This document shows, piece after piece, positions 215 through 40,722 of a stretch of 53,665 nt of DNA (position 1 is its first letter; each line of letters starts with the position of its first letter). Source of the DNA: an uncultured Bacilli bacterium (GTDB lineage: Bacteria > Bacillota_I > Bacilli_A > RF39 > UBA660). A program made the translations under genes and the position numbers. A model generated the notes under the pieces. It saw only the letters and a list, made by a program, of their open reading frames with translations. It did no database searches and was not told the DNA's origin. Where the stretch lies: assembly GCA_934102055.1 (NCBI GenBank), contig CAKOSE010000004.1, forward strand, positions 1 to 53,665. The letters run 5' to 3'.

Positions 215-328
215 CAATTTTTATATTTTATAAACTATACTTATCTCAAACATTACAAAGTATATAAATTCAAAAAATTTCATAATAAACGTTAGTGTTT
301 GAAATCACTCCCTAAAATAATTATATAA

Positions 329-1819
329 TTAAGGTATTATTATAAGACGGGTTGAATCATCGGAATAAGTAGTACCATCAAATGGATCAGCAACAGTTTC
401 TCCACCAAAGCTAGGATATGAACTAAAAATACTATCACCTCTAATTGTCCACGGCATACTATCAGCTGGTAATTTCATTTCAGCACCATACCAATCATAT
501 ACATCATCTTTTAAAACTTCTTTTATTCCATCTCCTAATTTACTTCTTATCATAGAGTAATTATCTCCTGTATCATTATAAATATCATAGTATTTTTCAT
601 CTGGTAAAGATGTAAACTGTGATTTACCATATCTGGAATCACCACCATAAGACATAGTTAATTCATGCGCTCCACCAACCATATCATACACTCCATATAT
701 ATTCCCTGTAGTAGACGTTAACATTCCATTTTTTGTATCATAAGCACTACAAATAGAACTGTTATCACTTGCACCACATCCTGCTTTATATTCATATATC
801 ATACCACTAGCAACACTATAAGAGTTAGCCTTTATCTCTGCATATTCATTTTTTTCACACATGCCATATCTAGAATGGGATAGATATGCTACCGCTCCCC
901 ACTCCATGTTTTTTATAACATGTGTATCAATAGATGAATTAAAACCATATTGATTGTTATTATTTTTCATATTTAATATATTTGTAAAGAAAGAACTTAA
1001 TACTTGATTATTTAAAGTAACTATATTTGGTTTATTGTGATGTTATCTATTGTTCCAGTAAGTTCAAATTTTCCTATCAAAAAACCTTTTATTTCTTCAT
1101 CTCCAAATGTAAAGGCTGGATGTGTATATGTTTTATTATTACATGTATCATCTGTACAAGCCTCATTTGTTGCTTTTAATTTACATACTTCAGATGGGTA
1201 TGCAGTTTCATCAGAACCAAGTTGATCTATACATGATAATTCTCCTGTTTTCGATGTCCCACTTTCAAATGTTATCTCTATTGGTTGAGGATCGCTTGTT
1301 TTTGTTCCAGTAGTATTATAATTCCATACTTTATATTTATATCTTGGTATCCAAACCTGCATTGTTAGAATATCATCCATTGGTATTTCTGTTCCAGGAC
1401 TTGCTGATAAATACTTACTTCTATTGGTTGATGATACTGTTACACTATTGGCCCATTTCTTTTCACAATAATCATACCAAGTGTTTCCTTTGTTTGCACT
1501 ATCTGCTTTCTTCCACGTTTCTGTTTCTTCATCATAATATACTGGTATCATTGCATCATCTAGTACTGGTTCATTTGGTTTATTACTACTACAGGTATCT
1601 ACTGTTAATTCTATTGTTTTTGAGCCTATTATTGTATCTGTAAATACTGCATATGTTGTATTTACTTTATAGGATATTAGTCCTACACACATTAAAAATA
1701 TTATACTTAAAGTAGATATAATATAGGGATTAAACTCTTTTATATCTTTATTTAATAGATTGTAGAACCCCCCCCCCCCCAGACGAATATTTGTTCGCTT
1801 TTTTATTACTTTTTTTCAT
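329..1819 (-). pseudogene. Disrupted or phase-OFF paralog of the 676-aa surface protein gene at 32553-34583
   Basis: ATG at 1819 with RBS AAAAGGAGTTAAG. Translation gives MKKSNKKANKYSS, then the 13-G tract, then VLQSIK-stop. The body ORFs 1021-1692 and 329-970 lie in two other frames. Removing one G joins the ATG to GGGGFYNLLNKDIKEFNPYIISTLSIIFLMCVGLISYK. A second -1 shift near 1031-1035 (ACAATAAACC here versus ACTACAAAACC in copy 2) splits off the C-terminal part. Confidence 0.8.
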
Positions 1820-1907: not shown

Positions 1908-1932
1908 AAATAAAAAAAGCCCTACGGCTTTT
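1908..1932 (-). terminator. Rho-independent terminator of hup
   Basis: Stem AAAGCC/GGCTTT (1916-1921 / 1926-1931) with a 4-nt loop, followed on the minus strand by TTTTTTTATTTT, directly after the hup stop codon. Confidence 0.7.
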
Positions 1933-31819: not shown

Positions 31820-31904
31820 ATTTATCACCATATTAATTATATATTATTACTAAATAAAAAGAAAGAGTTTTTCTCTCTTTACTTATAAATTAATATGAGT
31901 CTTG

Positions 31905-32330
31905 TTTATTTTGTTATAATATCTTTATAAACTATTGTTTTAAATATTCCTTCTAAGTATATATTTAAATCATTAGGATTATCTTGAAGTATTGATATAT
32001 TACCTGGCAACCATCATTTTTCATATAATCTAAGAAATATTCATAATGGCTTTTATTATTTTTATTAAAAGCACTTGGATATTCTTCAAAAGGCAATGAT
32101 AACATTTTTTATTTTCACATACCTTTCCAATAATAATGTTGCTAATTTACCAGATAGCATATAAGCATTTGAACCTGTTATATATACTCAACATTTTTCT
32201 TTATATATATAGACTATCAACAGTCTTTTGAAATTTAGGAACTATTTGGAACTTCATCTAAAAAACATAATAATTCTTCTTGAAGTCAATTTTTGTAAAT
32301 ATTTTTCCATAACTACCATGATTTAACATG
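31905..32330 (-). pseudogene. Decayed remnant of an AAA_14/DUF4143 (COG1373-type) ATPase gene
   Basis: Minus-strand translation across at least three frames gives FFLDEVPN, KFQKTVDSLYIKKNVEYI, TGSNAYMLSGKLATLLLERYVKIK, PFEEYPSAF, HYEYFLDYMKNDG and YLEGIFKTIVYKDII. This follows the family pattern (LDE[IV]Q, TGSN..LLS.ELAT.L.GRY.EI, PLSF.E[FY], YL..I..T...KDI). The Walker A N-terminus and the C-terminal half are missing, and several stops and frameshifts interrupt it. Confidence 0.55.
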
Positions 32331-32489
32331 TTTTGGAAATTGTTGTTTTTTATTTTTTTCTTACTATTTTACTAAATATTTTTACTTATCAACAGAATCA
32401 AATTTTAACAAAAGTATTAAACTTTTGTTATGGGAAAACTATTACTGTAACTCATAGTTTTAGATAAAATTATATTTTAATTTACATAG

Positions 32490-32525
32490 AAAAAACCTAT
32501 AAAATTACTTATTCGTAATTTTATA
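32490..32525 (-). terminator. Terminator of the 676-aa surface protein gene
   Basis: 11-bp stem TATAAAATTAC / GTAATTTTATA with a 6-nt loop, followed on the minus strand by GGTTTTTTC. Confidence 0.65.
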
Positions 32526-32552
32526 AGACTGTTTCATAGTTTTGGTAACACC

Positions 32553-34583
32553 TTATGGTGTTATTATGAGGCGAGATGTGTCATCCGAAAAAACATTACC
32601 ATCATTGTTGCCTGAGGAAAACACTAAATTGCCAGTACCAGTATACGCACCACCTCGGCGAAGCCAAGGATAATTGCAATACACCAATGCGCCAAGATTT
32701 CTACCTGAACCATCATACACTTCTTTTATTCCATCTCCTAATTTACTTCTTATTCTAGTATATTTACTTGTACTAAAACTATATTTATCATAATATTTAC
32801 TATTTGGATATGCTATTCCTGCGTATGATGTATAATTACCTGAATCATATATTTTTCCCGTATATCCTGAATTTTGATTTGAATAAGCTCCACTCATCAT
32901 TGTTGTTCCATCGTTACTTACCATATTTCCCATTGTGTATTCAGTTGATCCTGCACTCATATCGTATACTCCATATATATTATGTGTTGTTGAGGCACTT
33001 GGTCCATCTTTTCCTTCCCCTATAGGCGTCTTTGTTACTTTTACTGTCGGACTATCAAAAACCTTTATATTTTTTATATATCCTGTATCTGTTCCTTTTG
33101 CTCCTGAATTATCTTTTCTATATGTAAAAGTTAATACATATTCACCTTTAGCTAATTTTTTTGATACATTTTTGTATGTTAATGCACTTTCTGTCGTTCC
33201 TAAAGTTGTGCCTCCTATTTTTGTACTTGTTCCTGTATCAGATAAAGTTGTTCCATCTTTTGTTATTGTATAGTATAAATAATCATAACTTGCACTTTCA
33301 CTTGACACACTCCAGTCAAATGATAAATATGTTTCATTTGTTGGTGCTGTAAAATTAAACTTCAAATTAGTTGTAGTAGAATTTTTTCCTTGATTAGAAC
33401 TCTTATATAAACCATCTGTTTCAGTCCAAGGATATGTCGTATCATTTGTAACTGTTGGGGAAATATTAGTTCCCCCAGTTATTGTGGTATTAGTTAGATA
33501 TTTTTGATTATATTTATATGTTCCATCTGATGTAAAAGAAGCACTAGAACTTCCTCCACTTCTTCCTGTATAATAGCTAGAACTATTATTTTTATTCACT
33601 TCTTTACATGTACCATCTGTACATGTTCCGTACTTAGAATGTGACAGATATGCGACTGCTCCCCATTCCATATTCTTTATCATATGTGTATCTGTTGTTG
33701 TTGATAGTCCATAGTTATTACCACTATTTTTCATATTCATTATGTTTGTTTCAAATGTACTAACCTTTTGATTTCTTAAACTTTGTACATCTGGTTTTGT
33801 AGTTATATTATCTATTGTTCCAGTAAGTTCGAATTTTCCTATCCAAAACCCTTTTATTTCTTCGCTTCCAAAAGTAAATGCTGGATGAGTATATGTTTTA
33901 TTATTACAAGTACTATCTGTACAAGTAGAATTTGTTTCTTTTAATTTACATGTTTCAGATGGTTTTCCCTCCGTTCCTGATATTGCATCTTGACATGAGA
34001 TTTCTCCATTTGATGCTGTACCATCTTCAAATGTTATTTCTATTTGCTGTTCATTACTACCAACTGTTCCATCACTATTATAATTCCATACTTTATATTT
34101 ATATCTTGGTATCCATACTTGCATAGTAAGTATATCATCCATTGGAATTGTTGTACCGTTTTCTGCAGATAAATATTTTGCTCTGTTGGTGCTTGATACT
34201 GTTACACTATTGGCCCATTTCTTTTCACAATAATCATACCAATTATTGCCTTTGTTTGTAGAATCTGCTTTTTTCCATGTTTCCGAATCTTCATCATAAT
34301 AAACTGGTATCATTGCATCATCTAATACTGGTGCATTTGGTTTATTCATACTACAGGTATCTACTGTTATCTCTATTGTCTTAGTACCCATTATTGTATC
34401 TGTAAATACTGCATATGTTGTGTTTACTTTATAGGAGACAATTCCTACTAAAACTAAGAATATTATACTTAAAGTTGATATAATATAAGGGTTAAACTCT
34501 TTTATATTTCTATTTAAAAAGTTATATAATTGCCCCCCCCCCCCAGACGAATATTTGTTTGGTTCTTGGTCTTTGTTTTTCAT
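32553..34583 (-). CDS. Phase-variable candidate: large Cys-rich surface/secreted protein with an FGE-sulfatase (C-type-lectin-like) fold interrupted by a beta-sandwich insert
   Basis: Intact 676-aa ORF with RBS AAAAGGAGTTAAAACTATG. Domain order: N-tail with the poly-G-encoded GGGG, a TM, the TTYAVFTD motif, a Cys-rich domain, then motifs GFWIGKFELTG, NMEWGAVAYLSHSKYG, IYGVYDMSAGSTEYT and WLRRGGAY. These resemble FGE-sulfatase family signatures. The domain assignment rests on motifs only. Confidence 0.85.
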   Translation of the reverse strand: MKNKDQEPNKYSSGGGGQLYNFLNRNIKEFNPYIISTLSIIFLVLVGIVSYKVNTTYAVFTDTIMGTKTIEITVDTCSMNKPNAPVLDDAMIPVYYDEDSETWKKADSTNKGNNWYDYCEKKWANSVTVSSTNRAKYLSAENGTTIPMDDILTMQVWIPRYKYKVWNYNSDGTVGSNEQQIEITFEDGTASNGEISCQDAISGTEGKPSETCKLKETNSTCTDSTCNNKTYTHPAFTFGSEEIKGFWIGKFELTGTIDNITTKPDVQSLRNQKVSTFETNIMNMKNSGNNYGLSTTTDTHMIKNMEWGAVAYLSHSKYGTCTDGTCKEVNKNNSSSYYTGRSGGSSSASFTSDGTYKYNQKYLTNTTITGGTNISPTVTNDTTYPWTETDGLYKSSNQGKNSTTTNLKFNFTAPTNETYLSFDWSVSSESASYDYLYYTITKDGTTLSDTGTSTKIGGTTLGTTESALTYKNVSKKLAKGEYVLTFTYRKDNSGAKGTDTGYIKNIKVFDSPTVKVTKTPIGEGKDGPSASTTHNIYGVYDMSAGSTEYTMGNMVSNDGTTMMSGAYSNQNSGYTGKIYDSGNYTSYAGIAYPNSKYYDKYSFSTSKYTRIRSKLGDGIKEVYDGSGRNLGALVYCNYPWLRRGGAYTGTGNLVFSSGNNDGNVFSDDTSRLIITP

Positions 34584-34621: not shown

Positions 34622-34650
34622 ATTCTATAATAAAAATAATACTTTTTCAA
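34622..34650 (-). promoter_or_regulatory. Sigma-A-like promoter (TTGAAA-N17-TAGAAT) of the phase-variable gene, embedded in the upstream gene's terminator hairpin
   Basis: On the minus strand: TTGAAA (34650-34645), a 17-nt spacer, TAGAAT (34627-34622). The hairpin is AATAATACTT-GAAA-AAGTATTATT. This cassette is homologous to 7498-7530. Confidence 0.5.
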
Positions 34651-38961: not shown

Positions 38962-40722
38962 TCACATTGCTCTTTTGAATAGTTTTTCTAGTTCATAGAA
39001 ACTATAATTTATAATAGTAGGTCTTCCATGGGGACAAGTATATGGGTTTTCACACTTTAAAAGGGTTTCTAAGAGTTTTTCTGCTTCTTCTAGGGAGATA
39101 TAGTCATTTGCTTTAATGGCCATCTTACAAGAAAGGTTTATGGCAATTTTTTCGTTAAACTTTTCTTTTGAGAAGTCTTTTTCATGGATGATAATTTCGA
39201 TTATTTTTCTTAGGGACTCAGTTATATATCTTTTGTTTATCCATTTTGGATGTTTTCTTATTATTATGACATTTTGTCCAAACTCTTCGTATGATATTCC
39301 TACTCTTTCTATTATAGATTTCTTTTCTTTTAATTCAAGGAATTCTTCGTTTGTAAATTCTAGTTTTATTGGCACAAGTACATCTGTAAATTCCATAGTT
39401 TCTTTGCCTAGTTCTTTTTTATATTTTTCATAGTTTATTCTTTCTTGTGCTGCGTGTTGATCTATTAGATGCATACCATCATCGTTTTCTCCGACTATAT
39501 ATGTGTTTCTAACTATTCCCACGGGAGTTATTTTTTTAACTGTTTTTTTATTTGTTTCTTGTGTGTCTGTTATGTAAGGGATTTCTTCTTCGTTTGCGTT
39601 AAAATCAAAGGTTACCTCTTCGTATATTGGTTTTATTTCTTGTTTTTCTTTAAAGTCTAAGTCTTTGTTTATAGTAGTTATTTTATCAATGTTGGATACT
39701 ACTTTTTCTGATGATTTAATTTCTGGGACAAGGATTAATTTTAGTAAAGCATTATTTATGGTGTGTCTAATTAATTCTAGTAATTCTTCTTGTTTAGAGA
39801 ACTTAATATCCATCTTAGTAGGATGAACGTTTACATCTATTATAGTAGGATCTGATTCTATGTTTAGGACTACAACAGGATATCTTCCGATTGGTAAATA
39901 GGTATGATAAGCTTCTAGGATGGTTTTTATAACAGAGTTATTTCTTATGTATCTACCATTTACAAACATGGTTATAAAGTTTCTAGATGCTCTATTTACT
40001 TCTGGGTAGGAAATGTATCCATTTATGTCGTAATCACTATTAGATGAGTTTATCTTTATCATTTTTTTAGTAACATCAAGACCATATATACTATTTATAA
40101 CTTTTAAAAGATTACCAGATCCATCGGTATTAAGTAGAACTTTTTCATTATTTGTGAGAACAAACTTTATATTAGGATAAGAAAGTGCCATTTTATTTAC
40201 ATATGAGGTTATATTAGCAAGTTCAGTATGAAGGTTTCTTATATATTTAAGTCTTGCTGGGGTGTTATAGAAAATATCTCTTACAGTTATCTTAGTTCCT
40301 GTTCTTAAACTTGATTCACTTGTGCTAGAAATTACTCCGCCATTTATAACTACTAAAGTGCCACATGTTCCATCTGAAGTTTCTATTTGCATCTTAGAAA
40401 CAGAGGCAATAGATGGAAGAGCTTCTCCTCTAAAGCCTAAGGTATCTATATGAAACAAGTCATCATCATTATATAGTTTACTAGTTGCATGTCTTTTTAA
40501 ACAATTAGTGGCATCAATTCTGCTCATACCTATGCCATCATCAGAAACACAAATCTCTCTGGTACCAGCATCTATTAAAGAAATTTTTATACTGGTAGAA
40601 GATGCATCTATACTATTTTCAACAAGTTCTTTAACAACGTTCATTAAAGTTTCCACAACCTCTCCTGCTGCAATCTTATTGGAAAGGTTTATATCCATTA
40701 CTTTTATTTTGTCCATAATCAT
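38962..40722 (-). CDS. mutL: DNA mismatch repair protein MutL
   Basis: GHKL ATPase N-terminus (IAAGEVVE, ELVENSIDA, DDGIGM) and a C-terminal dimerisation/endonuclease domain (DQHAAQERI, CPHGRP). Confidence 0.95.
   Translation of the reverse strand: MIMDKIKVMDINLSNKIAAGEVVETLMNVVKELVENSIDASSTSIKISLIDAGTREICVSDDGIGMSRIDATNCLKRHATSKLYNDDDLFHIDTLGFRGEALPSIASVSKMQIETSDGTCGTLVVINGGVISSTSESSLRTGTKITVRDIFYNTPARLKYIRNLHTELANITSYVNKMALSYPNIKFVLTNNEKVLLNTDGSGNLLKVINSIYGLDVTKKMIKINSSNSDYDINGYISYPEVNRASRNFITMFVNGRYIRNNSVIKTILEAYHTYLPIGRYPVVVLNIESDPTIIDVNVHPTKMDIKFSKQEELLELIRHTINNALLKLILVPEIKSSEKVVSNIDKITTINKDLDFKEKQEIKPIYEEVTFDFNANEEEIPYITDTQETNKKTVKKITPVGIVRNTYIVGENDDGMHLIDQHAAQERINYEKYKKELGKETMEFTDVLVPIKLEFTNEEFLELKEKKSIIERVGISYEEFGQNVIIIRKHPKWINKRYITESLRKIIEIIIHEKDFSKEKFNEKIAINLSCKMAIKANDYISLEEAEKLLETLLKCENPYTCPHGRPTIINYSFYELEKLFKRAM

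Follow-up and report, generated by a model that had tools for sequence, protein, structure and literature searches.

Intragenic poly-G/C contingency loci have been described in Campylobacter jejuni, in whose AT-rich genome G tracts of 8-13 nucleotides (nt; modal length 9) set genes ON or OFF through the reading frame and vary in length among closely related isolates (PMC3401435, PMC4965091), and the homopolymeric signature of such loci has also been described for Neisseria (PMC5953494). The gene considered here lies near the start of a 53,665-nt stretch of DNA from an uncultured Bacilli bacterium (contig CAKOSE010000004.1 of assembly GCA_934102055.1; hereafter the window), where it occupies positions 329-1819 of the minus strand. 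We call it copy 1; an intact paralog of 676 amino acids (aa) on the same strand (32553-34583), which serves as our reference, is copy 2, and a further paralog of the species, outside the window, is copy 3. Several other systems bear comparison with this locus. In the Neisseria gene pilC, which specifies a pilus-associated adhesin, a G tract lies in the part coding for the signal peptide. Homopolymer tracts may instead occupy promoter spacers, as in Mycoplasma hyorhinis vlp, Neisseria meningitidis porA and opc, and Treponema pallidum tpr. Antigenic variation from silent cassettes is exemplified by Neisseria pilS, Borrelia vls and Mycoplasma genitalium MgPar, and modular type IV pilins bearing a bulky C-terminal binding module by PilB and PilC of Streptococcus sanguinis. 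Binding domains of the FGE-sulfatase/C-type-lectin fold (PF03781) also belong in this comparison.

Like C. jejuni, the window species carries intragenic tracts of G9-G13 in a genome of 27.7% GC. Unlike C. jejuni, the host belongs to an uncultured gut lineage of Gram-positive type, labelled Bacilli or 'Tenericutes', that encodes MutL; the switched genes specify the surface protein itself, as opposed to glycan-modifying enzymes; and copy 1 is no longer meaningfully switchable. To our knowledge, C. jejuni is without MutS/MutL mismatch repair. A full-length MutL is encoded at 38962-40722 of the window, and poly-G instability would therefore occur here in a mismatch-repair-proficient background, provided that MutS is also present. 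The likeness to Neisseria pilC is that the N-terminal leader of an adhesin, at the surface or pilus-related, contains a homopolymeric G tract, with at least two paralogs per genome that can be independently ON or OFF, and that one relative (locus L037) has its tract inside a prepilin leader; unlike pilC, the window copies share no sequence homology with it and have a degenerate, non-cleavable pilin-like anchor. The mechanism is a known kind of switch, in a lineage for which we found no prior report: targeted literature searches returned no published description of a poly-G switch for this lineage or this protein family. With a probability of about 0.8, we read copy 1 as a species-fixed pseudogene of a multi-copy family (at least three copies per genome) of membrane-anchored surface proteins that are normally switched by poly-G tracts.

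Copy 1 is interrupted at two points. Its ATG (1817-1819; all copy 1 features are on the minus strand) stands 8 nt after a ribosome-binding site (RBS), AAGGAG at 1828-1833, and opens a leader of thirteen codons, MKKSNKKANKYSS, with the G tract beginning at codon 14. In the window the tract is G13 (1768-1780; C13 on the plus strand) and out of frame, the in-frame lengths being 9, 12 and 15. Both alternative frames meet a stop within seven codons, and the G13 frame, as the first-pass annotation had read it from the ATG at 1819, passes through GGGGVLQSIK to a TAA at 1748-1750. The same annotation held that twelve Gs would carry the frame onward, collinear with copy 2, which the continuation FYNLLNKDIKEFNPYIISTLSIIFLMCVGLISYK bears out, and that one A is missing near 1031-1035 relative to copy 2, splitting the gene in two. 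This second lesion is indeed there: within ATCACAATAAACCAAATATAG (1021-1041; core ATCACAATAAACC), the run at 1031-1033 is AAA, against AAAA in copy 2 and in every relative. The frameshift leads to a TAG at 1021-1023, ending the product at 265 aa even with an in-frame tract, and leaves two open reading frames (ORFs). ORF a (1021-1692; 223 aa from an internal ATG at 1692) comprises the end of the transmembrane helix and a conserved Cys-rich N-terminal extracellular domain, and ORF b (329-970; 213 aa), whose ATG has no RBS before it, is a stranded C-terminal domain resembling FGE-sulfatase. Deleting one G and inserting one A turns copy 1 into a conceptual protein of 496 aa. Residues 1-336 of this product share 74% identity with copy 2 and its C-terminal domain 37%; copy 2 also has an insert of ~180 aa that it lacks. 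The further proposal that the two paralogs sit in opposite phase states is literally true of the window, where the copy 2 tract is G12 and in frame (34533-34544, minus strand; ON), but it is biologically moot because copy 1 is truncated even when its tract is in frame.

Homopolymer indels are frequent artefacts, and one added A restores the reading frame, so it might be supposed that copy 1 is a live phase-variable gene caught in its OFF state, with the A-run frameshift an error of sequencing or assembly. The public record makes this very improbable. We fetched 20 loci for copy 1, amounting to 14 distinct contigs and, with the window, 15 assemblies, and GATAACATCACAATAAACCAAAT is found at the A-run in all 20. 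These contigs derive from several samples, bear names of three styles (NODE_, k141_ and MERR22 scaffolds) and share one gene order throughout: Tex, ferredoxin, YunB, YutD, HU, ORF a and ORF b, PDDEXK_2, Cse60 and Lon. The exact proteins of ORF a and ORF b are recorded in 27 and 39 blocks of public metagenome assemblies, respectively. A search of ORF b against 5.8 billion protein clusters returned its own 213-aa cluster at 100% and a next best match at 48%, from which it follows that no intact copy 1 allele has been sampled. Moreover, a run of three As is not error-prone in short-read data. The ten largest other ORFs of the window have full-length Pfam matches (including DnaE, a PASTA kinase, MutL, YqfD and a SpoIID/M23 protein), which leaves copy 1 as its only obviously broken gene, and in a multi-strain alignment of ~4.7 kb of flanking sequence the indels between strains are confined to two intergenic runs and the G tract. 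Since the lesion is present in all contigs, the other genes are intact and the coding flanks are free of indels, sequencing error can be excluded for the A-run. The homopolymer error that the first-pass annotation had entertained is accordingly refuted at this site by 15 of 15 assemblies, and may still apply to the exact count of thirteen Gs. Among the GTDB representative loci, no syntenic ortholog of copy 1 (with HU upstream) was found.

The G tracts are likewise not chance features. The only homopolymers longer than nine in the 53.7-kb window are the G13 of copy 1 and the G12 of copy 2; at 27.7% GC, 0.01 matches to G9 would be expected by chance against the two tracts observed, and GGG accounts for just 6.4% of Gly codons, giving p ~1.7e-5 for four in succession. 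Across the 15 assemblies, the copy 1 tract is in frame only once, in the G12 allele of L100, the annotation of which carries a predicted truncated ORF of 265 aa. The other alleles are the G13 of the window, G11 in L088, GGGGGAGGGGG in L096 and L102, GAGGGGGG in five contigs, GAGGGGG in three and AGGGGGG in two; most are interrupted by an A or shortened to G5-G6. The interrupted alleles are taken as real because they recur in several independent samples. L088 and L100 show 0 mismatches to the window over ~7 kb outside the tract, and the length differences among the three stem either from genuine hypermutation within a clonal background or from poly-G noise that varies from assembly to assembly.

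We propose that the family is turned ON and OFF by slipped-strand mispairing in the poly-G tract, which is placed in a short cytoplasmic leader just before the transmembrane anchor. In copy 1 of every strain sampled, the 1-nt deletion cuts off the FGE-sulfatase-like C-terminal domain from the N-terminal domain and its anchor. If the A-run lesion came first, switching would have ceased to have a phenotypic effect, selection for a long, pure tract and for the in-frame state would consequently have lapsed, and the tract would have been left to decay. The G13 of the window would then be the least-decayed allele, still hypermutable and yielding at most a truncated product of 265 aa, and the pure tracts kept by copies 2 and 3 would be working switches. 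The decaying paralog that the first-pass annotation offered as one option is supported by the A-run lesion in all 15 assemblies, by the broken tracts, and by the protein sequence itself: repaired copy 1 violates 10 of 111 family-invariant columns, where leave-one-out controls give a median of 0-1, and the violations include W247L, which is still polymorphic among strains. The ratio of nonsynonymous to synonymous substitution rates (dN/dS) against the paralogs is ~0.4 for the gene as a whole and ~0.2-0.3 for most of its N-terminal half, which indicates that copy 1 was functional for most of its history.

Several points weigh against this interpretation. Diversity within the species is ~0.5-1%, and the body of copy 1 holds five single-nucleotide polymorphisms (SNPs; three synonymous, two non-synonymous), too few for decay after the frameshift to be demonstrated statistically; SNP density in the body is also no higher than in the flanks. 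The invariant-site violations could stem in part from a divergent C-terminal subfamily and from alignment uncertainty. The comparison was made between assemblies and not reads, so that the exact G count and part of the variation between assemblies could be poly-G sequencing or assembly noise, and some assemblies may be re-assemblies of the same samples. Finally, copy 1 retains its RBS, its ATG and a perfect -10 box, such that transcription and a truncated product are possible.

The last of these points leads to the question of whether the split gene still works, an in-frame tract giving a functional 265-aa membrane-anchored N-terminal domain and the G tract remaining a meaningful switch. The terminator (1915-1932, minus strand) of the upstream HU gene (1934-2206) implies that copy 1 needs a promoter of its own, and a candidate can be read from the sequence at 1849-1877, with a weak -35 element (TTCCAA, 1872-1877), a 17-nt spacer and a perfect -10 element (TATAAT, 1849-1854), although it scores under the threshold of a consensus scan; the 100 nt upstream of copy 1 are 97% conserved in L001, a mosaic relative discussed below. 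That the -10 box, RBS and ATG are intact, that the N-terminal domain is the best-conserved part of the gene, and that the long-tract haplogroup keeps G11-G13, with an in-frame 265-aa ORF in L100, would all suit a truncated but working product. Yet just one of the 15 alleles is in frame, and most tracts, interrupted or short, would not switch readily; among the family members examined there is no natural product of ~265 aa; and the family-invariant W247 has been lost in most strains. We therefore regard a functional split gene as quite unlikely.

Alternatively, programmed -1 ribosomal frameshifting or transcriptional slippage could carry expression past the second frameshift and restore a full-length protein. 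The lesion is fixed and the downstream frame is open for 213 codons in all strains, as such a bypass would require, but low strain divergence by itself accounts for the open frame. The local sequence offers little to slip on: A-ATA-AAC does not fit the slippery heptamer X XXY YYZ, the A3 run is far too short for transcriptional slippage, and the 96 nt downstream are essentially unstructured (minimum free energy -0.5 kcal/mol, z = +2.26; 200 of 200 shuffled sequences fold at least as well). A frameshift at this position is found in no relative. Taken together, these observations make a bypass scarcely credible.

A third possibility, which takes up the donor cassette of the first-pass annotation, is that copy 1 is a silent archival cassette from which expressed paralogs receive sequence through gene conversion, its unique C-terminal module for example. 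Two considerations speak for it: the pseudogene is kept in all strains, and the family is mosaic. One chimera is the L001 gene (322-2054): it matches copy 1 at 93-97% through its promoter and first 400 nt and at 71-89% through its middle, and at its 3' end it is 82-84% identical to copies 2 and 3. Copies 2 and 3 (the former compared with L118) likewise reach 95-98% nucleotide identity in some stretches (~nt 300-500 and 1300-1500 of the alignment) against 65-85% elsewhere, a pattern that suggests gene conversion between these live paralogs. Occasional exchange of modules over evolutionary time is therefore real. Copy 1, on the other hand, shows no sign of having donated anything. Synonymous divergence (dS) from copies 2 and 3 amounts to 0.68 and 0.75, respectively, and approaches zero in none of the 40-codon windows, and the best identity over 100 nt to either copy is just 88-91%; recent gene conversion of copy 1 with copies 2 or 3 is rejected on both counts. 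Apart from the pseudogene ORF itself, no protein more than 48% identical to its C-terminus exists among the 5.8 billion clusters (the N-terminal half was not searched separately), so that its C-terminal module is seen in no expressed protein. Copy 1 resembles pilS, vls and MgPar in being a non-expressed paralog kept alongside expressed ones in a mosaic family; unlike those promoterless cassettes, it is full length with its own RBS, ATG and -10 box, stands as a single copy with no array, and has diverged from the expressed copies by 21% in DNA sequence. A donor role thus finds no support in these data, and we consider it markedly unlikely. The dS values among the three paralogs (0.60-0.75) show them to be old. 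The L001 gene, represented by protein P0118, was also weighed as an ortholog of copy 1 and rejected, being a mosaic gene at another locus, followed by EzrA; its tract, GGGGGGAGGGG, has one A fewer upstream and is out of frame and poorly switchable.

In contrast to copy 1, copy 2 is intact around its switch. It is preceded by a promoter-like site (TTGAAA, 17 nt, TAGAAT; 34622-34650, minus strand), and its syntenic order is Dtd, DUF6512, copy 2. Alleles of copy 2 elsewhere (L121-L126, L002 and L120) are ON with G9 or G12 and OFF with G10 or G11. The tract is pure in seven of eight alleles, the remaining one having an interrupted TTGGAGGGG (SSLEGQ) in its place that locks it ON. In one strain the two copies can be seen together, as L124 (copy 2, G11, OFF) is on the same contig as L086 (copy 1, dead); both copies are accordingly off in that strain. 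Copy 3 lies between pyruvate kinase and a patatin gene. In L118 and L119 (1345-1420) its leader MKKIDKKTIKNDVDTTNKYSS is followed by G11 (OFF), and P0036 is the G10, ON form.

The wider family shares this association between tract and gene start. The 82 related loci from other species, 490 kb together, contain 16 G/C runs of at least 7. Each is a G9-G12 run on the sense strand, and nearly all belong to a family gene, lying in its promoter or at its 5' end. Five genes combine a tract within the leader-coding region with a long ORF downstream, and each of them is in frame. L037 (1807-1900) belongs to this class, with G12 inside a prepilin leader, MMIMRKNKIKLANCKPGGGGQNLYKIRLNYG|FTLIELLGV. In one rabbit-gut metagenome-assembled genome (MAG), by contrast with the intragenic tracts of the window copies, the tract occupies a putative promoter spacer of 19-20 nt, cTTGACAcgta-Gn-cgtggTAGAAT, with G10-G11 (L056 2540-2600; L057 2564 and 4410; L058 2563; L062 653), an arrangement like that of vlp, porA/opc and tpr. 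The family genes of this MAG encode true type IV pilin-like proteins, and thus represent the same family with the switch in a different position. Many database homologs are N-terminally truncated gene calls or have starts inside the tract; in others the tract is replaced, for example by LKGEA or SSLEG. A scan of metagenome DNA with AAATATTCGTCTGGGGGG gave 11 loci; several had matched by chance in unrelated DNA of high GC (L109, L113, L115) or broke off at the tract. The family has more than 6,800 database homologs, without a Pfam hit on record.

The sequence next to the tract is also conserved. The 12 nt that precede it, AAATATTCGTCT (KYSS; window 1781-1792 and 34545-34556), are identical at the DNA level in the paralogs and also in genes with quite different leaders (L107, L110, L114, L116 and L117); L039, a family member with just ~45% protein identity, differs by one base (AAATATTCGTAT). 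To judge from these identities, the 5' switch may be a portable or selectively maintained module. A different arrangement is seen in L049, where two identical G9 tracts 2 kb apart (4362 and 6362) each lie in a short leader ORF (MLPGGGQFNSK...), after which come a hairpin, a T-run and the start of a gene; these may represent control of the leader-peptide type or remnants of decayed 5' modules. In a related species known from a Hadza MAG, at least four family genes on one 706-kb contig (L004, L005, L007 and L014) lack any G run of at least 7 within the loci fetched, their leaders reading, for example, MKQTRESIYILL, which indicates that the tract has been gained or lost lineage by lineage.

The proteins of the family have a short cytoplasmic leader with GGG(G), one transmembrane helix, a conserved Cys-rich domain of ~250 aa and a C-terminal domain. 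Neither copy 2 nor repaired copy 1 scored above the cut-off of any Pfam or NCBIfam model. The best indication for the C-terminal domain is PF03781 (FGE-sulfatase), which repaired copy 1 matches at E=0.073 (13.2 bits vs a cut-off of 23.3) and which is matched at E<=0.01 by 20 of 37 homologs of the C-terminal ORF of copy 1 (best 2.3e-5), a weak but recurrent signal. A profile search of the PDB yielded weak matches alone (5vf4 at E=0.013, and PvdO), and the full-length family alignment had no match in a PDB sequence-profile search. The AlphaFold2 model of copy 2, built from a 31-sequence alignment, has a mean predicted local distance difference test score (pLDDT) of 56.5 and is confident only for the insert (~residues 362-520), so it was not used for the core domains. 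The insert is modelled as a beta-sandwich, for which Foldseek returned generic jelly rolls (CBM61, CBM35, ephrin-receptor-LBD and MAM).

At the N-terminus, the relatives L056 and L037 match N_methyl (PF07963) above its curated cut-off (21.8 and 22.0 bits vs 21.2), followed by the family core. The window copies have no Pfam hit to PF07963 and fail the class III pilin signal (G at -1, F/M at +1, E at +5): their ...NIKE|FNPYIISTLSIIF has E at -1 and no E at +5, and the anchor ...NIKE|FNPYIIST is a homologous but degenerate version of the pilin-like one. The resemblance to PilB and PilC of S. sanguinis and to PF03781 binding domains lies in the N_methyl pilin N-terminus ahead of the family core in L056 and L037, in the weak but recurrent PF03781 matches of the C-terminal domain, and in the copy 2 insert, which is predicted to form a CBM-like beta-sandwich. 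It is limited by the failure of the window proteins to carry the pilin motif and by a copy 2 model that is poor outside the insert (pLDDT 56). From its sequence features, the family most likely provides a displayed binding protein, either an adhesin or a lectin-like protein.

MAG records of the host label it Bacilli or Tenericutes, and among related records are Acholeplasma sp. CAG:878, Clostridium sp. CAG:914, Coprobacillus sp. CAG:605 and Ca. Pelethosoma. Genes of cell-wall and sporulation type are present in the window. Copy 1 itself is an ordinary pseudogene and should be annotated as one pseudogene in place of two hypothetical proteins. Of wider interest is that classic homopolymer contingency loci occur on a large surface-protein family in uncultured gut Bacilli, for which metagenomes are the sole source, with ON and OFF alleles both visible across human (Hadza) samples. 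Counting tract lengths in reads would offer a handle on host or phage interaction in organisms not yet grown, and many of the 'N-terminally truncated' gene calls and contig breaks in these MAGs stem from the tracts.

A more ambitious interpretation, speculative and unlikely in our estimation, would see in these loci an undescribed system of uncultured, RF39-like gut Bacilli with small genomes, in which pilin-derived FGE/lectin-like surface proteins are held under poly-G control, in the leader or the promoter spacer according to lineage, and paralogs are born, recombined into mosaics and killed. Copy 1 would be a casualty of this process and still a possible reservoir: its C-terminal module could be revived by insertion of one A together with tract slippage, or be moved by recombination onto a live 5' switch module. 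L001 indicates that module swaps of this sort have occurred.

Some minor observations concern the surroundings of the two window copies. The 35-nt motif ATTATGAAATTTTTTGAATTTATATACTTTGTAA (window 253-286) stands upstream of a PDDEXK_2/Rpn-like gene, inside which the window starts by ~70 nt. It recurs after EzrA in L001 (4112-4321) and, in the 3' ends of L105 and L106, directly after DUF6512, at the place expected of copy 2. The motif is probably an element present in several copies, at which assemblies break and which flags structural variation; some strains may lack copy 2. A look-up of neighbours with DUF6512 returned mostly short contigs (810-2,152 nt) ending just past that gene; only L104 reaches the start of copy 2, where it ends ~10 nt before the tract. 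On the other side of copy 2, the 720 nt that separate it from ffh (31832-32552) hold no ORF of 50 aa or more, and by eye they contain short reading-frame fragments resembling the remnants of a degraded gene.

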